Shown: positions 11,469 to 54,501, counted from the stretch's first letter. The stretch is 64,000 nucleotides of DNA from an uncultured Candidatus Peribacteria bacterium (GCA_964352145.1 CAYGQA010000001.1:152617-216616), one strand, 5' to 3'. Notes: generated from the sequence alone by a model not told the origin. Numbers and translations: made by a program.

Positions 11469-11579
11469 TATTAAGGACCAAGTGTTAAGGTCCAAAGATA
11501 AAGGATACCTTAAGCATTCTTCATTTTGTAAATAGGACAGTTTCTAGTTATCCATCGTATGTAAGCTATCCTTCTTTAT

Positions 11580-44981: not shown

Positions 44982-46115
44982 TCACTGCACTAAAACCTCT
45001 ATTTTCTTTCTCCTTGCTGGCACCTCTAATCTCTCCATGGCTTTTGTTTCTATTAGACGTACTTGTTCTCTACTACAGCCTAAAATTTTCCCTATCTTCA
45101 CTAAACTGATTCTACCTGAAGAATATAAACCATTCCTCATGCATAATACTTCCCTTTGAAGGAATGTGAGTTCATTAAGGACAGCCCTAAACCTTTTCTT
45201 TATTTCTTCTCTTTCTATTTGATCAGGCACTTTTTCTTGCTTGTAGGCTATACAGTCTTTGAGTTTCACCGGTCTTTGATCGACTTCTTGTTCATCATGT
45301 ACTTCTTTCGGTGACTTTGCTTTTTCTTCGAAAGAAAAGAGGTGTGCAGTTGCTATCATGACTCGTATGATTCGCTGTCGAGGCTTGTCAAAATTTCTTG
45401 CGATATCATCAAAACAAGCCCTTTCTCCATTTTCTGCAAAGGACTCAATGTAATCATCATATTGGCGTATTTCTCTGTAATAATTATTATTGATTTTAAG
45501 CATATATTTAGTAACTCCGATGAAATTCATCATTTTTCCTATTATACATCTGTATGCATAAGTAATAAATGATACCTCCAAGTTTCCTTGAAAGCTTACT
45601 ACAGCTTCTATAAGAGCTATATTTCCTTCTTGCACAAGATCCATACGATCCCATTCGTTTCTCTTTCGAAATTTATTTGCAATTGATACAACGAGCCTTG
45701 AATATTGATGTACTACCTTTTCAGTAAGTATATCAATATTTATCCATTGATCGATAATAAATTGACTTAATCCGTTTTCTGGATTTTCTCTCACATACTG
45801 ATCACATAGCCCTCTGAGTTCAGCCTCTTTGAGCTTTGAACCTTCAATAGAAGCTTTTTCATTTTCAGGACCCAGAGCTTGCTCATGGAGATTCGATGTA
45901 TCTCTGTCTTCTGGATTTGTATTTTGATTTTTTTGATGAAGATTAAGTAATCCAAGAAAAAATGGATGAGCATAAACTTTCTTAAAAAGCTCGTCTTTAT
46001 GTGTTTTTCTTTTACATAAAAGCTCTAAAACTTGTTCATTACTCAGACGTTCCTTGACAGGGCCAATACTTTCGAAGTAATCATCTAAGTCATTTTGGTA
46101 GATGTTCTCTTTCAT
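44982..46115 (-). CDS. sigma-70-family RNA polymerase sigma factor with atypical N-terminal ~150 aa
   Basis: Region 2-like DLVQEGNIALIEAV and region 4 HTH SLVKIGKILGCSREQVRLIETKAMERL. Confidence 0.75.
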   Translation of the reverse strand: MKENIYQNDLDDYFESIGPVKERLSNEQVLELLCKRKTHKDELFKKVYAHPFFLGLLNLHQKNQNTNPEDRDTSNLHEQALGPENEKASIEGSKLKEAELRGLCDQYVRENPENGLSQFIIDQWINIDILTEKVVHQYSRLVVSIANKFRKRNEWDRMDLVQEGNIALIEAVVSFQGNLEVSFITYAYRCIIGKMMNFIGVTKYMLKINNNYYREIRQYDDYIESFAENGERACFDDIARNFDKPRQRIIRVMIATAHLFSFEEKAKSPKEVHDEQEVDQRPVKLKDCIAYKQEKVPDQIEREEIKKRFRAVLNELTFLQREVLCMRNGLYSSGRISLVKIGKILGCSREQVRLIETKAMERLEVPARRKKIEVLVQ

Positions 46116-47770: not shown

Positions 47771-48214
47771 ATGAAAATTTTAAGTACCAACAAAAAGGCC
47801 AAATTTGATTACGAAATCGTCGAAGAATACTCGGCTGGTATTAAGCTAGAAGGACGAGAAATCAAATCGCTACGCAATCAAAAACCCGCTTTTGCAGGGA
47901 GTTATGTCACGATCAGCAATGGAAAACCTATGCTCCATGATCTGAATATCCCTCGATATAAGCACGACCCTTCTCCAGAATATGATCCAAAGAGGGAACG
48001 TCTGCTTCTTTTGAAGCAATCAGAAATCAACCGTATCCAAGGAAAACTCAAAGAACAGGGAGTGACTGTGGTACCCATCGCGATCGGACTTGAGCGGCAA
48101 TGGGCCAAGGTGACGATAGGTATCGTCCGTGGTAAAAAGCAGCATGACAAAAGACAGACCATCCGTGACCGTGAAGATAAGCGAAAAATGCAACGAGTGA
48201 TGAAGCAATATTAA
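47771..48214 (+). CDS. smpB: SsrA-binding protein SmpB
   Basis: NKKAKFDYEI, GIKLEGREIKSLR and a basic C-terminal tail KKQHDKRQTIRDREDKRKM. Confidence 0.9.
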   Translation: MKILSTNKKAKFDYEIVEEYSAGIKLEGREIKSLRNQKPAFAGSYVTISNGKPMLHDLNIPRYKHDPSPEYDPKRERLLLLKQSEINRIQGKLKEQGVTVVPIAIGLERQWAKVTIGIVRGKKQHDKRQTIRDREDKRKMQRVMKQY

Positions 48215-48246
48215 AATGTTTATATTTATATCAAGGAGAAGCTAAT

Positions 48247-48423
48247 ATGGGCAAAAAAGAAAAACAATTTTATCTTTGGTGGAGAGATCGTGTCTCTCTT
48301 TCAGAGAAATTAAGAATAATGTCAATTGAAAGCTCTGTAGTGATTAAAATGATGCAAACTGTTGATATTTTTTTAATTGATCCTGGTAAAAACCTCCCTG
48401 AAAAATTCAATACTTTTCACTGA
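48247..48423 (+). CDS. possible small protein (58 aa)
   Basis: ATG 48247 is preceded by AAGGAG at -13 to -8, one of the very few canonical SD sequences I saw in the window. Encodes MGKKEKQFYLWWRDRVSLSEK.... Below the track cutoff. Confidence 0.35.
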   Translation: MGKKEKQFYLWWRDRVSLSEKLRIMSIESSVVIKMMQTVDIFLIDPGKNLPEKFNTFH

Positions 48424-48497
48424 CTAAAGTAATAAAGAAAAATCTCATACTGCTTTTTTAGATTATCTTAAGCCTTACAAAAGCTCAGTCAATCTAA

Positions 48498-48545
48498 GCC
48501 CTTCTCTTGAGGCAAGAGAGGAAAGCCTTTAGGCAGGGTGAGTTC
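48498..48545. repeat. CTCACC-hairpin repeat family, solo copy (inverted orientation)
   Basis: The reverse complement gaactcaccctgcctaaaggctttcctctcttgcctcaagagaagggc matches the first ~26 nt of the 32298 copy at all but 2 positions. Confidence 0.6.
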
Positions 48546-48601
48546 ATCAGCGGCGAAGACGATCCACAAATAAGCTCAACTATTTTTAAAATAGTAAAAT
48601 T

Positions 48602-48680
48602 GTGCCTCGCTACCACACAGACCTGAGTCCCTACGAGGGATACAGTGAAGTATGGACAGCGAGGCGATGCTCTCTGCTAG
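48602..48680 (-). terminator. cassette 3' hairpin H1 (conserved stem, U-rich tail), end of array
   Basis: Minus strand GCCUCGCUG-U-CCAUAC...GUGUGG-UAGCGAGGC with an internal UCCC-UCGUA-GGGA hairpin, followed by AAUUUUACUAUUUU. The G-U pairs work only on the minus strand. Confidence 0.55.
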
Positions 48681-49273
48681 TTTTCGATGTTTGCCATTTT
48701 TGAATTTACAATTCTTCTTAAACGTATAAATAAAGAGGCAAATTTTGGCATTAAATCCTCCTTATTTTCGGCTGCTAATTCTCTATCGAGAAAACTTTTT
48801 GCTATGGTTAGAAGAGCAAGTGAATCTACAAAACCTAGGTAATATTTGTAGAGAAAATCATCCATATCCTCAATCTCTTTCTGTGAGAGATCTTTAGGAT
48901 TTAGCATTGCGTTCTGTATCACTTCTAAACTAACTTTCTTTTTTTCTTCTTTTTTTTCTCGAGCTTCTGCTTCTTCATCGAGAACTTTTTGAGCCTCCTT
49001 AATCAAAAGTTTTTTTAAATTAGTTTCAATTTCGGAGTTTGGAACTAATCCTTTTTTTTCTTCATCTGCTTCTACAACCAATTCTGAATTATAATCCATT
49101 ACATAATATGTAAAGTTTTTTTCCAAAGGAATTTCCGAAGAATATTTTTGAAGGAGCTCCTTGAAGGGTTTTGTTTTTTCAGTACTTAAACTATCCCCTC
49201 TAGTAAGAGCCTCTAAACTCAGTCCGGACTCTTCTTTTCTTGAAAAAGAGATTTCTAAAATTATTGGATTCAT
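48677..49273 (-). CDS. cassette A protein (hypothetical, 198 aa)
   Basis: ORF body directly 3' of conserved leader L1. Start placed at AUG 49271-49273, because the track start at 49318 lies inside the leader. Confidence 0.6.
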   Translation of the reverse strand: MNPIILEISFSRKEESGLSLEALTRGDSLSTEKTKPFKELLQKYSSEIPLEKNFTYYVMDYNSELVVEADEEKKGLVPNSEIETNLKKLLIKEAQKVLDEEAEAREKKEEKKKVSLEVIQNAMLNPKDLSQKEIEDMDDFLYKYYLGFVDSLALLTIAKSFLDRELAAENKEDLMPKFASLFIRLRRIVNSKMANIEN

Positions 49274-49280
49274 CACATTA

Positions 49281-49396
49281 CCAACCAGCAGAGAGCGAAC
49301 TCCCTGCGGCCTTTTCATATATATTTTTTACAAATGAATACCCAAAGCAGAAGCTTTGAATGAGGCTCCACACGGAGTTCTCTGAATACTGATTGG
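49281..49396 (-). ncRNA. conserved structured cassette leader L1
   Basis: Closing helices CCAAUCAG/CUGGUUGG, CAGAG/CUCUG, AACUCC/GGAGUU and UGUGG/CCGCA, with apical hairpin CAAAGC-UUCU-GCUUUG. Nearly identical to L2-L4. Confidence 0.55.
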
Positions 49397-49425
49397 TTCG
49401 ATTTTTCAAGGTTCTTTAAAAATGC

Positions 49426-49501
49426 GTGCCTCGCTGCCATACCGGTCTGGCTCCCACGAAGGGAGGAGATATGGTCAACGAGGCGTGGCCTCTGCTGTTA
49501 G
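49426..49501 (-). terminator. cassette 3' hairpin H2
   Basis: GCCUCGUUG-A-CCAUA...UAUGG-CAGCGAGGC with internal CUCCC-UUCGU-GGGAG, followed by GCAUUUUUAAAG. Overlaps the cassette B stop codon. Confidence 0.5.
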
Positions 49502-50091
49502 TCGTCTTTCTTGAGCATAATTCTTATCAAATCAAGTTGTGCTGCTACTTGATTGTGAAGAGTAAGATCCTTGTCTTCTGTGCAGTCTCCATATTCTTTC
49601 ATTTCATCAAGATCTTTTTCAATCTGAACTGCGACGGGCAATATCCTGAGGATATCTGTAAGTAAGTCAGGTATATTTACCCCATCTGTTTTATCTCTCA
49701 AAGAGAAATTCACTATGTCACTTATTATGTCTTCCATTCTTTTACTAGTTTCTTTTATCTCTTGATCTTCCAAGTCTGATAGAATTGTTTTCGTAGTGTT
49801 TACGAGAAAAGCACCCAAATCTTTGAGAAAATCATCAGATAAATTTCCTCCTTGAGTTGCTTTTTCAGAACTCAAAAGACCTGAATCACTTGAGTAAACA
49901 AGAAAATCAAACTCTATTTCTGCAGGAATGTTATCCTTGTTTTGACAGAGAAAATGCTGGAATATATTTAGTTTTGCAGGATTTAACACTTCTTTTTCTT
50001 TGATGGTTAAGCTCACCATCATTCCTTTTTCTACTTTCTTACAGAAGCAAAGCCTTAAAACCTCTTCAGATGAATTTCCGCGTACTACCAT
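49498..50091 (-). CDS. cassette B protein (hypothetical, 197 aa)
   Basis: ORF body 3' of leader L2. Start placed at AUG 50089-50091. Ends ...KKDD, followed by UAACAGCAGAGG. Confidence 0.6.
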   Translation of the reverse strand: MVVRGNSSEEVLRLCFCKKVEKGMMVSLTIKEKEVLNPAKLNIFQHFLCQNKDNIPAEIEFDFLVYSSDSGLLSSEKATQGGNLSDDFLKDLGAFLVNTTKTILSDLEDQEIKETSKRMEDIISDIVNFSLRDKTDGVNIPDLLTDILRILPVAVQIEKDLDEMKEYGDCTEDKDLTLHNQVAAQLDLIRIMLKKDD

Positions 50092-50098
50092 CACATCA

Positions 50099-50214
50099 CC
50101 AACCAGCAGAGAGCGAACTCCCTGCGGCCCTTTCATATATATTTTTTACAAATGAATACCCAAAGCCGAAGCTTTGAATGAGGCTCCACACGGAGTTCTC
50201 TGAATACTGATTGG
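50099..50214 (-). ncRNA. conserved structured cassette leader L2
   Basis: Same helices as L1. The apical hairpin is CAAAGC-UUCG-GCUUUG. Confidence 0.55.
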
Positions 50215-50243
50215 CCCGTTTTTTCAAGGTTCTTAATAAAGTT

Positions 50244-50320
50244 GTGCCATCGCTGCCATATCGGTTCTTCTCCCTCGGAGGGAGGAGATATGGACAGCGA
50301 GGCGATGCCTCTGCTGTTAG
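50244..50320 (-). terminator. cassette 3' hairpin H3
   Basis: GCCUCGCUG-U-CCAUAUC...GAUAUGG-CAGCGAUGGC with internal CUCCC-UCCGA-GGGAG, followed by AACUUUAUUAAG. Overlaps the cassette C stop codon. Confidence 0.5.
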
Positions 50321-50934
50321 TCGTCTTGACTTAAAAGTTCTCTAAGCTCCTGAATAAGCTTCTTTGTTTTTGAAAGAGTCGGAATTTCGGAGATGAATTT
50401 TTTCTCATCTGCATCTAACTTACCTGTTACATCTTTCAAGTCACAAAAAAGAGACTCCGCTCTAAGTGCATTATCAATTTCTGCTAAACAAGTCTTCAAT
50501 TTGTCTGCAAAAGCACAATCAAGAGCCTCAATATCTAAAACACTCACCCCTCTTAACTTCTTCGTAGCTTTTTCAAGATTTACTTCTTTTTCATCAAGAC
50601 GCTGAAGTAAATTTGAAGCTAAAGTGAGCATACGCCCACGAAGTCTTTTGCAAAATTTTGAAGCAGACTTTATGCTGCCTTCGATTTTTCTAAAAGACAA
50701 AGCCTCTGTGTCGAGTACTACCTCAAAACTGTATATCTCCTCGGATTCAAACTCTTCTTTGTTCTTGTTTATGAACGCTTCCATGCGTTCCAAGCTGGTT
50801 TCAATAAGCTCTTTCTCTTTACAAGAAAAAGTTACTTCTACGTTCCTTGAGCCTTTTCTTCTGAAAAAAGATACATGAAGTACTTGATCGTCTTCATAAA
50901 GCTGTCCTTCAGAAAAATCTCCAATTACTACCAT
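50317..50934 (-). CDS. cassette C protein (hypothetical, 205 aa)
   Basis: ORF body 3' of leader L3. Start placed at AUG 50932-50934. The 263-aa track ORF reads through the leader and promoter. Ends ...SQDD, followed by UAACAGCAGAGG. Confidence 0.6.
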   Translation of the reverse strand: MVVIGDFSEGQLYEDDQVLHVSFFRRKGSRNVEVTFSCKEKELIETSLERMEAFINKNKEEFESEEIYSFEVVLDTEALSFRKIEGSIKSASKFCKRLRGRMLTLASNLLQRLDEKEVNLEKATKKLRGVSVLDIEALDCAFADKLKTCLAEIDNALRAESLFCDLKDVTGKLDADEKKFISEIPTLSKTKKLIQELRELLSQDD

Positions 50935-50941
50935 CACATTA

Positions 50942-51056
50942 CCAACCAGCAGAGAGCGAACTCCCTGTGGCCCTTCATACGCATAACTTACAAATGAATA
51001 CCCAAAGTCGAAACTTTGAGTGAGGCTCCACACGGAGTTCTCTGAATACTGATTGG
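50942..51056 (-). ncRNA. conserved structured cassette leader L3
   Basis: Same helices as L1. The apical hairpin CAAAGU-UUCG-ACUUUG shows a compensatory C-G to U-A change. CCACA replaces CCGCA, turning a U-G pair into U-A. Confidence 0.55.
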
Positions 51057-51089
51057 TTCGATTTTTCAAAGTACACCAAAAGAGTGCAC

Positions 51090-51118
51090 AGTTTACTTTA
51101 CATCTCATATTATGTCAA
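51090..51118 (-). promoter_or_regulatory. cassette promoter P2 (TTGACA-17-TAAACT)
   Basis: Minus strand: TTGACA (51118-51113), 17-nt spacer, TAAACT (51095-51090). The block is shared with P1. Confidence 0.55.
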
Positions 51119-51142
51119 TAATTTCTGACATTATAAAAAGTT

Positions 51143-51217
51143 GTGCGTCGCTGCCATACGTTCGATTCCCTACGAGGGAGGAGGTATGGACAGCGAGGCA
51201 TGTGCCTCTGCTGTTAA
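51143..51217 (-). terminator. cassette 3' hairpin H4
   Basis: GCCUCGCUG-U-CCAUACC...ACGUAUGG-CAGCGACGC with internal UCCC-UCGUA-GGGA, followed by AACUUUUUAUAAUG. Confidence 0.5.
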
Positions 51218-51245
51218 TTTAAGTTCTCTTCTTTGCTTGATCAAA

Positions 51246-51551
51246 CTACTGATTCATTCTCATTCCAAGGTTGATGGCATGCGCATACAGTTGATGCAGA
51301 ATATCAGACGACATACTCAAAAGATTCTCGTTTGGTTTTACAGCAATTCCACCATCATGAGGTTCATATACCTCAATACTGATTACTTTCCCTATAGGAA
51401 AGTTCTCAATATTCTGTTCGATATACTCCACTAAAAATTTTTGAACTTCTTTTAAAGAATCTGGAATCTCCTGTGAGAAGTTGATATCAAATTCTTTGGA
51501 AGATTTTTTTCTGAGAATCTCAATTCGGATGAGTTCTTTTTTAGTCCCCAT
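51246..51551 (-). CDS. cassette D protein (hypothetical, 101 aa; N-domain only)
   Basis: ORF body 3' of leader L4. Start placed at AUG 51549-51551, because the track start at 51563 is a TTG inside the leader helix. Confidence 0.6.
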   Translation of the reverse strand: MGTKKELIRIEILRKKSSKEFDINFSQEIPDSLKEVQKFLVEYIEQNIENFPIGKVISIEVYEPHDGGIAVKPNENLLSMSSDILHQLYAHAINLGMRMNQ

Positions 51552-51559
51552 TCTTTTTA

Positions 51560-51681
51560 CCAACCAGCAGAGAGCGAACTCCCTGCGGCCCTTTCTTTAC
51601 ACTTGTTTCTAAAAACAACATAAAACCCAAAGCAGAAGCTTTGAATGAGGCTCCACACGGAGTTCTCTGAATACTGATTGG
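51560..51681 (-). ncRNA. conserved structured cassette leader L4
   Basis: Same closing helices and apical hairpin as L1. The A/U linker is replaced by a small extra hairpin, UUGUUU-UUAG-AAACAA. Confidence 0.55.
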
Positions 51682-51714
51682 TTCGATTTTTCAAAGTACA
51701 CCAAAAGAGTGCAC

Positions 51715-51743
51715 AGTTTACTTTACATTTATAATTCTGTCAA
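51715..51743 (-). promoter_or_regulatory. cassette promoter P1 (TTGACA-17-TAAACT)
   Basis: Minus strand: TTGACA (51743-51738), 17-nt spacer, TAAACT (51720-51715). It lies 31 nt downstream of the asnS stop. Confidence 0.55.
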
Positions 51744-51773
51744 CAATCTCTGACATTTAATCTGAAAAATGTC

Positions 51774-53063
51774 TTAAGGAGCCAGACGGTTCATAAGACG
51801 AGGGAAGGGGATGGTCTCTCTGACATGCTTCAATCCGCACATCCATCCGACGATACGCTCGAGTCCATAACCAAATCCAGAGTGAGGAACTGATCCGTAT
51901 CGACGTAAGTCCATATACCATTCAAGGCCTTTTTCAGGGACATTATGCTCAGACATCCATTTTTTCATGAGCTCTAGATCATCTTCTCGTTGTGAACCTC
52001 CGATGATTTCTCCGTATCCTTCAGGAGCAAGAAGATCGACACAGAGACAATTTTGTTCATCTTCAGTTCTCTTCATGTAGAAGGCTTTTACCTTCGCTGG
52101 GTAATGAGTGACGAAGATTGGTTGGTCATATTTTTTTGTCAGGATAGTCTCATCATCACCTCCAAGGTCTCTATCAGCGGTGATATCAGAGCCCATTGAT
52201 TGCAGCTCAGCGACTGCCTCAGCGTGAGTCATACGTTTGAAAGGACCTTTGATCTTTTTCAGTGGCTCGAGATCTCTTTCGAGAGTGAGCAGTTCTTTTT
52301 CTTTATTTTCCAAGACTCTTTTGATGACATGCAACATGAGGGATTCTTGGATATCGATGATTCCTTCGAGGTCACAGAAGGTAGCCTCAGCATCCATCAT
52401 CCAAAACTCTGTCAGGTGACGTCTTGTCTTTGATTTCTCTGAACGAAATACTGGTCCAAAATCAAAACCACGTCCACAACTCATCACGGCTGCCTCAAGG
52501 TAGAGTTGTCCAGATTGAGCGAGATAAGCTTGTCCTTCGTCGAAGTATTCCATTTCAAAGAGTTCTGTTGAACCTTCACAGGCATTATTCGTCATGATCG
52601 GTGTATCGACTTTCATAAAGCCGTTTGTATGCATCCATTCGAAGGTGGCTCGGATGACTTCGTCACGGACTCTTTGTACTGCGAGTTGTTTTTGAGAGCG
52701 AAGCCAGAGATGTCTATTGTCGAGGAGGAACTCCGGACCATGTTCTTTTTTTCCAATTGGGTATTCTTCCGCTATTTGGATGATTTCTATATCAGAAACC
52801 TGTATTTCAAACACATCCTCTTTTTTTGGATGTTGAGAGATGGTACCAGTCACTCGTACAGATGATTCGATAGTCAGTTGTTCTGCTTTTTCCATGACTT
52901 CTGGAGCGACTGCAGAAGCCTCTACGACTCCTTGCATTACCCCGGTCCCATCACGTAGCTGAAGGAAGGCAATCTTCCCAGACCCTCGCTTGTTGTACAT
53001 CCATCCTTGGATAGTGACCGTTTGGTCGACGAAATCTTTAGCATCTTTAATGAAAAAACTCAT
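51774..53063 (-). CDS. asnS: asparaginyl-tRNA synthetase
   Basis: Class IIb enzyme with an OB-fold N-terminus, FRSEKSKTRRHLTEFWMMDAE and GFGYGLERIV. Length is typical of AsnRS. Start set at ATG 53061-53063, because the track start is a TTG. Confidence 0.85.
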   Translation of the reverse strand: MSFFIKDAKDFVDQTVTIQGWMYNKRGSGKIAFLQLRDGTGVMQGVVEASAVAPEVMEKAEQLTIESSVRVTGTISQHPKKEDVFEIQVSDIEIIQIAEEYPIGKKEHGPEFLLDNRHLWLRSQKQLAVQRVRDEVIRATFEWMHTNGFMKVDTPIMTNNACEGSTELFEMEYFDEGQAYLAQSGQLYLEAAVMSCGRGFDFGPVFRSEKSKTRRHLTEFWMMDAEATFCDLEGIIDIQESLMLHVIKRVLENKEKELLTLERDLEPLKKIKGPFKRMTHAEAVAELQSMGSDITADRDLGGDDETILTKKYDQPIFVTHYPAKVKAFYMKRTEDEQNCLCVDLLAPEGYGEIIGGSQREDDLELMKKWMSEHNVPEKGLEWYMDLRRYGSVPHSGFGYGLERIVGWMCGLKHVRETIPFPRLMNRLAP

Positions 53064-53272: not shown

Positions 53273-53767
53273 ATGAGCCTTACGAAAAATGATCTCCAGC
53301 AGATCAAAAATGTCGTCACTGAAGTGATCGATGAAAAAGTCCCGAAGATGATAGATGAAGGTATAGAAAGGAAAGTGCCAAAAATGATAGAAGATGCTAT
53401 CGATAAGAAGGTACCTAAAATGATAGAAGACGCTATCGACAAGAAAGTGCCTGCAATGATCCAAGAAGGAGCTTCTGAAGTTTTTGTACAAGGCTTCGAG
53501 AATTATGTCATCCCATATGTAGACTCAAAATTTAATGAACTAAAAGGAGAAATGGATCACAGATTTGAAAAAATGGATATTAGGTTTGAAAAAGTAGATG
53601 AGACATTCAAAAAACTCAACAACAATATGGATAAGCATGTCTTAAGTCTTCACGAAAGAATCGATGACTCAATAACACTTAATGATCGTTATTATTACGA
53701 CTGTGCCACAAAGAACGAGCATAAAGCTCTTATCACAGGAGTGAATCGACTTGAATCTGCTCTTTAA
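53273..53767 (+). CDS. hypothetical helical protein with 12-aa tandem repeats (paralog of 10404..10709)
   Basis: KVPKMIDEGIER / KVPKMIEDAIDK / KVPKMIEDAIDK / KVPAMIQEG. The N-terminus and DHRFEK motif are shared with the 10404 ORF. Confidence 0.55.
   Translation: MSLTKNDLQQIKNVVTEVIDEKVPKMIDEGIERKVPKMIEDAIDKKVPKMIEDAIDKKVPAMIQEGASEVFVQGFENYVIPYVDSKFNELKGEMDHRFEKMDIRFEKVDETFKKLNNNMDKHVLSLHERIDDSITLNDRYYYDCATKNEHKALITGVNRLESAL
53336..53470. repeat. 36-bp in-frame tandem repeat (about 3.75 units)
   Basis: Units at 53336-53371, 53372-53407 and 53408-53443, with a partial unit at 53444-53470. Confidence 0.85.
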
Positions 53768-54501
53768 TTGCTCTGCTGCCACATCACCTCGAAGAGACTT
53801 GATAAGATATCGTAAGCAGCTTGAGAATCCAGGATGAAACCAAACATCTCTTGTTTTTTGAATGAGCTTATAGAAACCTTACTAGCTCCGAAAAGCAGTA
53901 ACTCTATATATAACTCTTTTTGCGAAAGAGAATCTAAAAGTCGATGTTCTGTATAAATCCCGGGATCATCTTTTTTGATCTTTTGATTCTTTTTTGTGTT
54001 GGGGCATATAAGCCTAGCGAAGTTCTTTCGATCTTTTCTCATCGGGATGATTTCTTTTCTGATGTACTCAAAAAGCGCCGCTGGCATATGACTATAATCA
54101 GTAAAACCCATCGTTTCACCTTTTTCATGACCCAACTCTAAGAGGATCTCTTTCATTCCTTCTAAACCGTCGAAGAAACGTATACGAGGTTTTAGAGGGC
54201 TTTCAAAAGCCATATCTATCAACTGAGGAAGCATATTTTCAGCGAGCGCTGCTGATTGTTTAAAACGATTCACTAAAATCTGAGGATTAAGTGCAGAAGC
54301 ATACTTCACTCCTTTTTTCTTTATCGTTTTAACAACAGCTTTTTTTTCTAAAACTTCTATGACGGGGTAAACAGTACTTCTTTTGATCCCAGTTTTTGCT
54401 GCGACTTGAGAGTAGGGGAGCTCTCCCATGCTTAAAATGGCTAAATAAATCTTCGCTTCTTTTTCTGAGAAACCGTTTTTTATCAGGATGTCTTGTATCA
54501 T
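53764..54501 (-). CDS. TrmB-family transcriptional regulator
   Basis: N-terminal wHTH GFSEKEAKIYLAILSMGELPYSQVAAKTGIKRSTVYPVIEVLEKKAVV. Confidence 0.7.
   Translation of the reverse strand: MIQDILIKNGFSEKEAKIYLAILSMGELPYSQVAAKTGIKRSTVYPVIEVLEKKAVVKTIKKKGVKYASALNPQILVNRFKQSAALAENMLPQLIDMAFESPLKPRIRFFDGLEGMKEILLELGHEKGETMGFTDYSHMPAALFEYIRKEIIPMRKDRKNFARLICPNTKKNQKIKKDDPGIYTEHRLLDSLSQKELYIELLLFGASKVSISSFKKQEMFGFILDSQAAYDILSSLFEVMWQQSN

Follow-up and report, generated by a model that had tools for sequence, protein, structure and literature searches.

Between asnS and smpB, the 64,000-nt stretch analysed here (GCA_964352145.1, CAYGQA010000001.1:152617-216616, from an uncultured Candidatus Peribacteria bacterium; the whole stretch is called the window in the following) carries on its minus strand four tandem modules, each made of a leader, an open reading frame (ORF) and a 3' hairpin. 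The array is a real feature and not a product of chance. With a probability of roughly 0.6, we read it as a cis-acting mRNA module, leader plus tail, that frames fast-evolving orphan genes and has been amplified in tandem, with a leader whose 3' strand would switch between pairing partners. The module belongs to a known general kind, that of cis-acting structures in untranslated regions (UTRs) and of tandem arrays of paralogues, and its features are unusual. The leader together with its matched 3' element is previously undescribed; it occurs in at least two Gracilibacteria-like lineages and is amplified four-fold here.

The modules are named D, C, B, and A along the minus strand, from the asnS stop codon (51774) toward smpB (47771-48214, plus strand); coordinates are collected in Table 1. 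An earlier note on this DNA had described the four minus-strand leader/ORF/hairpin units at this junction, and each of them is present where it had been placed. A 36-nt block of the leader, CCAATCAGTATTCAGAGAACTCCGTGTGGAGCCTCA, occurs in 4 copies with 0 mismatches, and a 32-nt block, GGCCGCAGGGAGTTCGCTCTCTGCTGGTTGGT, in 4 copies with at most 1 mismatch; neither is found elsewhere in the 64 kb and, for both, 0 copies are expected by chance. In global alignments, the leaders are pairwise 78.6-96.1% identical and the 3' elements 69.8-82.7%, whereas the ORFs are 39.8-55.4% identical at the nucleotide level, as compared with 39-52.5% for shuffled controls. The flanks (79-96% and 70-83%) are thus far better conserved than the ORFs (40-55%), as had been noted, and a simple recent tandem duplication, named in the earlier note as the alternative, is ruled out by this comparison, since the identity of the ORF DNA is at the level of the shuffled controls. 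Leaders A and B agree at 122/127 positions, which fits the previous estimate of about 2 differences in their cores and about 6 overall. The conserved block spans from the last ~11 nt of one ORF to the first 9 nt of the next; the last hairpin has no leader behind it and the first leader no hairpin before it. Some homogenisation is likely, given the identity of the A and B leaders and a block that runs across the ORF ends. Gene conversion among neighbouring copies probably adds to the leader identity, because not even the loops differ between leaders A and B and the block extends into both ORFs. The TTGACA-17-TAAACT block precedes only D and C, as noted before; the promoter scan found none for B or A. 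The promoter blocks of D and C (~75 nt) are 89% identical.

Table 1. Features of the asnS/smpB junction in the window, with the junctions compared on contigs of relatives (last row)
Feature	Position	Strand	Remarks
Strain-specific segment	48215-51773	-	smpB stop to asnS stop; comprises the four modules together with a spacer and the 58-aa ORF
Promoter-like site, module D	51715-51743	-	TTGACA-17-TAAACT
5' stem-loop, transcript D	51696-51714	-	GUGCAC-UCUUUUG-GUGUAC, from sequence reading; putative function
Leader D	51555-51685	-	covariance-model match 124.5 bits; z-score -5.7; P6 sequence differs
ORF D	51246-51551	-	101 aa; N-terminal domain of the family only
3' element D	51140-51217	-	head UUAACAGCAGAGGC, long bulged hairpin, U-run
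Promoter-like site, module C	51090-51118	-	TTGACA-17-TAAACT
5' stem-loop, transcript C	51071-51089	-	same sequence as in D
Leader C	50937-51060	-	covariance-model match 138.8 bits
ORF C	50317-50934	-	205 aa
3' element C	50240-50322	-	stop codon TAA inside the conserved head GACUAACAGCAGAGGC
Leader B	50094-50218	-	covariance-model match 145.7 bits
ORF B	49498-50091	-	197 aa
3' element B	49422-49503	-	both stem arms shared with the other hairpins
Leader A	49276-49400	-	covariance-model match 146.3 bits
ORF A	48677-49273	-	198 aa; most divergent member of the family
3' element A	48598-48682	-	head CUAGCAGAGAGC
P5 hairpins of the leaders	49340-49361, 50158-50179, 51000-51021, 51625-51646	-	terminator scan
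58-aa orphan ORF	48247-48423	+	AAGGAG ribosome-binding site, unlike most genes of the window
Junctions compared	L005 10444-10452; L088 11293-11296; L092 11290-13200; L096 3710-4396; L102 2316-4547

The leader (~125 nt) forms a 28-bp imperfect rod (P1 to P4) with a three-way junction cap that carries the hairpins P5 and P6. In P1, ACCAAUCAGUA pairs with UGCUGGUUGGU; an internal loop comes next, then P2, with GAACUCC paired to GGAGUUC, followed by P3 and P4. The loop of P5 is UUCG or UUCU. P6 is variable and, in leader D, another sequence still forms the hairpin. One closed shape is obtained for all four leaders (-52 to -54 kcal/mol, z-scores of -4.7 to -6.2), with no shuffled sequence as stable. 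The sense strand, with 5-7 G·U pairs per copy, is more stable than the antisense by 16-21 kcal/mol (-53.4 vs. -35.4 kcal/mol in leader D). Differences among the leaders of the array (U·G to U-A and U·G to C-G) preserve pairing, and P5 of leader C displays a compensatory change of C-G to U-A. With the 5' strand unavailable, the 3' strand of the leader folds on itself into a local hairpin, GCAGGGAG-UUCG-CUCUCUGC, of -16 to -21 kcal/mol. The ATG of the ORF comes 7-11 nt past the end of the rod. A reading frame over the leader, 'MKGPQGVRSLLVGNVM', is broken in C and D; the leader is therefore non-coding, and a conserved N-terminal peptide or upstream ORF is ruled out. No Rfam model matches the locus, even at E = 10 (4227 models, Rfam 15); in 48400-51800, chance matches of at most 21 bits are all that appears up to that value. 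The only match at the gathering threshold in the window is one tRNA; a tmRNA was looked for beside smpB and none was found. The terminator scan flags P5 in every leader (9-bp stem followed by a U-rich stretch), and this hairpin may be an internal attenuator in competition with the closed rod.

A covariance model of the four leaders was run on the neighbourhoods of asnS relatives and matched one locus, L098 11350-11481 (identical in L099), at 51.5 bits with E about 6e-11. The flanks, for which the earlier note had proposed a search beyond this genome, are thus not confined to it. L098 is a 1.04-Mb contig of GCA_029233985.1, annotated as 'MAG: Candidatus Gracilibacteria bacterium' (MAG, metagenome-assembled genome), whose asnS shares 81% identity with the window asnS. 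The module follows the asnS stop directly and has the strand of asnS; ahead of the leader come a promoter, TTGACA-17-TACAAT, and then a 5' stem-loop, GUGCACUUCGCAC, both at positions equivalent to those in module D. After the leader, an ATG at 11486 opens an ORF of 258 aa, and the 3' element, made of AACCAGCAGAGAAC and a bulged hairpin, ends at the smpB stop. Folded alone, the L098 leader again forms this rod, capped by two hairpins (-48.5 kcal/mol, z-score of -4.0).

In a structure-independent MAFFT alignment of the five leaders, both partners have changed in 11 pairs, six of which belong to P2-P4 (one A-U to G-C, three C-G to U-A, and two G-C to U-A); no P2-P4 pair is disrupted in L098. With the model-fitted alignment, double-changed pairs number 15 and 97.3% of the cells are paired, a result equalled by 0/500 shuffles; slid controls of that alignment are 36-48% paired. 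The two species share the blocks CAAUCAGUAUUCAGAG and CUCUCUGCUGGUU without any change, with two U·G pairs among them, and 5/5 leaders keep U·G at columns 9/122 and 13/118. The compensatory changes and the invariant G·U pairs therefore argue that the leader rod is a sense-strand RNA structure, and the cross-species covariation constitutes good, though thin, evidence of selection on it.

The heads of the 3' elements (~13 nt) are complementary to the 3' strand of the rod, as ACUAACAGCAGAG in modules B-D, CUAGCAGAGAGC in A, and AAACCAGCAGAGA in L098. The leader-head duplexes of the window range from -19 to -29 kcal/mol; that of A has 14 contiguous pairs in a shifted register, at -29.2 kcal/mol. 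Shuffles match the duplex in 0/1000 cases for A, 122/1000 for B, 8/1000 for C, and 25/1000 for D. In L098, the head is an exact 13-nt complement (-28.2 kcal/mol, with 0/1000 shuffles as good). Further out from the head, pairing is possible between the last codons of the ORF and the region of the start codon. In L098, the lower stem of the 3' hairpin differs in sequence but pairs in the same way (5 compensatory pairs). On reading the sequences, an unpaired U in the 5' arm of this hairpin is kept in all five copies, and the head is also complementary to that 5' arm, so that a role as anti-terminator is possible. The complementarity between leader and head would represent either a 5'-3' closure of the RNA, as in hok mRNA (PMC9841398), or a DNA inverted repeat that brackets the ORF.

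With the ORF starts taken at the ATG following the leader, the lengths (Table 1) are within the 101-205 aa given before. The earlier note had seen unrelated-looking ORFs without similarity between their bodies. This remains true of the DNA but not of the proteins, which are remote paralogues with 16-23% amino-acid identity. BLASTP connects C with D (7e-5), B with D (3e-3), and B with C (8e-3). In a leave-one-out test, where each protein is compared with the profile of the other three and with 2000 shuffles of itself, the scores (best shuffle in parentheses) are 14.1 (10.7) for A, 12.3 (10.0) for B, 29.3 (15.0) for C, and 21.4 (8.0) for D. To judge from these comparisons, the four ORFs are real genes and remote members of one orphan family, and the array would therefore have grown by duplication and divergence. 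Among the origins considered in the earlier note for such flanks, selection at the RNA level is favoured by the compensatory changes and homogenisation is likely; for cassette exchange inside the array there is no evidence.

The ORFs of the array and of L098 are charged, rich in Glu, Lys, and Leu, and without Trp. The N-termini differ (MNPIIL, MVVRGN, MVVIGD, MGTKKE). The AlphaFold2 (AF2) model of protein D, with a predicted local distance difference test (pLDDT) of 90.3 and a predicted template modelling score (pTM) of 0.80, has a beta-beta-alpha-beta-beta-alpha topology. For protein C, the overall pLDDT is 71.5, with 80-90 in the N-terminal domain and lower values in the helical C-terminal half. 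In Foldseek searches of PDB and BFVD, the two models retrieve nothing below E = 0.05 (best for D, E 0.07 in PDB). The family models of Pfam, PADLOC, PHROGs, and NCBIfam do not match the cassette proteins, and both a word-index search of 5.8 billion clustered proteins and full HMMER against 1.84 billion representatives return self matches only. Two weak compositional matches were rejected as homologues: P0007 is a repeat protein, and P0008 a Glu/Lys-rich helical protein on a contig without leader. The translated leader as query of the protein database gave zero candidates, and an exact look-up of spurious ORFs spanning leaders or hairpins found none on record. The 258-aa ORF of L098 scores 0.3 against the four-protein profile (521/2000 shuffles reach at least that value) and, with hhalign against the window proteins, E is 0.39-0.48. 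By eye, its N-terminus follows the strand-strand-helix-strand-strand pattern of the window proteins. Either extreme divergence or replacement of the ORF may account for the lack of detectable similarity.

These elements suggest an mRNA frame consisting of a sigma-70-type promoter (in D and C only), a 5' stem-loop, the leader, the ORF, and the 3' element. The leader and the 3' element would act in cis as RNA and set translation, mRNA stability, or both. The 3' strand of the leader would alternate among three exclusive partners: the 5' strand, itself, and the 3' head. Pairing with the 5' strand would produce a closed rod abutting the start codon, and pairing with the 3' head an mRNA closed from 5' to 3'. 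Most of the 45 gene starts checked in the window have no recognisable Shine-Dalgarno sequence, and its absence before the cassette ORFs is therefore normal here; a helix of -50 kcal/mol placed 7-11 nt before the ATG should impede such Shine-Dalgarno-less initiation. The invariant internal loop, flanked by its two G·U pairs, probably serves for recognition by a trans factor, be it a protein, a ligand, or RNase III, which could shift the balance among the leader pairings. The need to satisfy three partners would explain why the sequence of the leader 3' strand is frozen. Transcripts started at the C promoter would read through into modules B and A and thereby express them, each under the leader it carries. 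As for history, the module would be old in the Gracilibacteria-like lineage at the asnS/smpB junction and its four copies here the product of tandem duplication; the proteins would then have diverged nearly beyond recognition, with the RNA parts kept by purifying selection and local gene conversion.

Several observations weigh against this reading. The near-100% identity of the 36- and 32-nt blocks exceeds what structure alone needs. The covariation statistics are thin because only two independent lineages contribute (5 sequences, 4 of them paralogues). The L098 antisense folds nearly as well as the sense (-45.2 vs. -48.5 kcal/mol), which leaves the window copies and the conserved G·U pairs as the basis for reading the leader as sense-strand RNA. 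Taken as intrinsic terminators, the 3' hairpins are non-canonical, with a spacer of 4-5 nt before the U-run, and the terminator scan of the window flagged none of them. Finally, the leader-head complementarity could equally be explained as a DNA inverted repeat.

The last point leads to an unlikely alternative, in which the flanks are DNA recombination sites for a recombinase encoded elsewhere, as in clusters of attC sites lacking integrases (CALINs) or in inverton/shufflon-like systems. Inverted repeats bracket every ORF (8-10 bp, exact, as read in the window, and 13 bp in L098), a base of the 3'-hairpin stem stays unpaired throughout, and the same frame encloses ORFs without detectable similarity in two species, at a junction that is a hot spot with different cargo among relatives; B and A, in addition, have no promoter of their own. 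The B and C ORFs stop inside TAAC and ORFs start after GTTGGT, which resembles attC cores. The consensus of these cores is RYYYAAC (R'') and GTTRRRY (R'), and a regular-expression scan of 48200-51800 on both strands found the RYYYAAC...GTTRRRY pair at no element boundary, with only GACTAAC and GTTGGTA as near misses. A match of the flanks to an attC family, which the earlier note had named as refuting its description, is thus absent at every boundary as judged by the core motifs. The note had also set integrons aside for want of an integrase. Indeed, none of the genes up to about 10 kb away on each side has a Pfam annotation as recombinase, integrase, or transposase; on its own, this absence is insufficient, since integrase-less CALINs exist and are common (PMC4889954). 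Integron arrays and CALINs, such as those of the Vibrio VCR/attC type, share with the present locus the single orientation, a hairpin repeat between differing short ORFs, stop and start codons tight against the repeat, and an integrase that is not necessarily near; their attC sites are described with R and L boxes (PMC4889954). On the other hand, the locus lacks the cores, and its repeat unit is leader-ORF-hairpin instead of ORF-attC, with ~240 nt of conserved leader and hairpin and, in two modules, a promoter. The array ORFs are paralogous, which points to duplication and not to capture. The leader G·U pairs, the large gap between sense and antisense stabilities, and the UUCG/UUCU tetraloops suit an RNA and not a folded bottom-strand DNA.

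Two further explanations were considered. Addiction genes in the style of type I toxins (hok, aapA), where 5'-3' pairing and metastable leader structures hold the mRNA inactive until 3' processing activates it, would account for an intergenic insertion that is patchy and multi-copy but are quite improbable here. Computationally, long-distance 5'-3' pairing of the hok kind is present, with a conserved complementarity that takes in the start-codon region, and the leader has alternative folds; the promoter is of a strong constitutive type, and the copies are in tandem with a patchy distribution at one chromosomal junction. The tac/fbi pairing logic of hok is documented, and in hok/Sok and in aapA/IsoA of H. 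pylori, as here, a structured mRNA pairs its 5' end locally or with its 3' end, and multiple copies occur patchily at conserved chromosomal spots (PMC9841398). However, type I toxins are hydrophobic peptides of <60 aa, whereas the present ORFs (101-258 aa) encode charged, predicted globular and soluble proteins. Neither a conserved antisense promoter nor an antitoxin RNA was found (for the sole plus-strand promoter-like site near a leader, 51085-51113, no counterpart is flagged in module D), and PADLOC has no match. Still less probable is a selfish origin of the leader, as a miniature inverted-repeat transposable element (MITE) or Correia-type repeat, with an identity due to recent spread and gene conversion instead of function. 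P1 does look like 11-bp terminal inverted repeats with two transition mismatches, and the junction is a hot spot for other selfish DNA (GIY-YIG genes and repeats). The Correia elements of Neisseria are inverted-repeat elements of ~100-150 nt upstream of genes, co-transcribed into long mRNA hairpins cleaved by RNase III, and they can carry promoters (PMC2649163). But they occur in hundreds of dispersed copies, in both orientations and with target duplications, whereas the orientation and position of the leader relative to the ORF are constant, and no other copy exists in the 64-kb window or in about 1.46 Mb of other loci. Besides, the cross-species changes are compensatory with fixed G·U pairs, and the matched 3' element accompanies the leader in both species.

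Other known systems offer partial likenesses to the cis-acting module that we favour. In riboswitches and other structured 5'-UTR regulators, as in this module, a leader of ~125 nt closes with a helix beside the start codon, contains a multi-stem junction and covarying stems, keeps nucleotides of the internal loop invariant, and can form an alternative local hairpin. Compensatory changes across the species, in two lineages, indeed indicate a structured 5' leader. Unlike riboswitches, the leader has no Rfam match, precedes orphan ORFs and not a defined pathway, and has a matched 3' element as its partner. Among tandem paralogue clusters, that of lpl in S. aureus likewise has a conserved unit spanning two neighbouring ORFs and the intergenic region between them, and recombination at conserved segments shuffles the remainder (Tsuru and Kobayashi, PMC2568036). 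There, each ORF contains the conserved block at which recombination occurs, and the intergenic region varies together with its flanks, whereas here the intergenic RNA elements are the conserved part. The phase-variable vsp/vpma loci of Mycoplasma combine a conserved 5' UTR and signal peptide with an adjacent site-specific recombinase; the present locus has neither a conserved N-terminal signal sequence nor a recombinase nearby.

A more speculative and rather doubtful extension is that the self-pairing RNA is a portable chassis that tags the enclosed ORF for a dedicated process, with ORFs replaced or diversified exceptionally fast. That process could be controlled translation or else mRNA export, packaging, or targeted diversification in an episymbiotic bacterium of the candidate phyla radiation (CPR). 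The locus would then be a cassette system operated by RNA or short inverted-repeat signals and not by attC and integrase. Dissimilar ORFs in two species, inverted repeats of 8-13 bp, and an insertion hot spot make this idea compatible with the data.

If confirmed, the cis-acting module would be a new class of structured RNA from the poorly studied Patescibacteria (CPR). Its layout is unusual, with a 5' leader and a 3' element able to pair with each other around proteins that outpace their RNA frame, and it offers a tractable example of a locus where non-coding sequence is under more constraint than coding sequence. Through it, a lineage-specific protein family with a confident but unmatched predicted fold also becomes accessible to study; a role of the cassette proteins in the interaction between host and symbiont is a speculation. 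The five-sequence model is a concrete tool to search for more modules, and the locus illustrates that an array of conserved hairpins among divergent ORFs need not be an integron.

Further copies were searched for in several ways. With the filters off, the covariance search detects no additional leader in the window, and it finds none in the about 1.46 Mb of other loci. Exact leader patterns have no true match in viral contigs (31-mer, 19-mer, and a two-block pattern), genome contigs (20-mer), or metagenome contigs (21-mer and 19-mer). The sole metagenome match, L086, is inside a high-GC ORF and due to chance. Blastn of hairpin and leader against phage and plasmid collections returns nothing.

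The nearest named asnS proteins belong to MAGs of Candidatus Gracilibacteria, Peregrinibacteria, and Patescibacteria. In a sister species, L005 (77-85% nucleotide identity), the strain-specific segment is missing and the stops of smpB and asnS are 7 nt apart. Nothing is present between the two genes in L088-L091, L104, and L105, and the stops adjoin or overlap in several relatives. In L100, the gap is 120 nt with no called gene. At other junctions are found a GIY-YIG gene and an HI0933-like flavoprotein (a TARA contig), a GIY-YIG gene with 'cgtcattctgagc'-type repeats (GCA_964352285.1; two Logan contigs end where these repeats start), or three unrelated minus-strand ORFs (GCA_001458795.1). The module is patchy with respect to asnS identity, being present at 81% and absent at 92, 88, 86, and 83%. 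Given this varied content across relatives, the asnS/smpB junction is a hot spot of insertion or deletion. The GC content of the strain-specific segment is 32-40%, as against 44-45% in the flanking genes. Logan contigs of ERR3534977-95 match the window at 100% identity; the longest two stop inside leader A, as expected since the leader is a repeat. A scan of genome contigs for smpB gave, among the matches listed, only relatives at 50% identity or less. In the window, TGA ends 7/46 ORFs and the long conserved genes are intact; the standard genetic code therefore applies and code 25 is ruled out.

The 58-aa orphan ORF has no match among the family models; its 90% cluster has one member, on four contigs, and three Logan contigs, 100% identical to the window, hold it entirely. 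The ~180 nt after it (48424-48600), inside the strain-specific segment, contain a hairpin of the CCUCUCUUG/CAAGAGAGG type and a minus-strand promoter-like TTGACT-16-TAAGAT, antisense toward the 58-aa ORF. A second insertion relative to L005 is on the other side of asnS (53273-54501) and encodes a TrmB-like helix-turn-helix regulator and a 164-aa coiled-coil protein with KVPKMIEDAIDKKVP repeats; a 29%-identical homologue of the latter is beside asnS in L092-L094. At 2.5 kb from the array, the minus strand carries a sigma-70-family gene (44982-46115; GC 31-38%) with regions 2 and 4 only and no equivalog. Absent at that position in L005, it could code for an accessory sigma factor.

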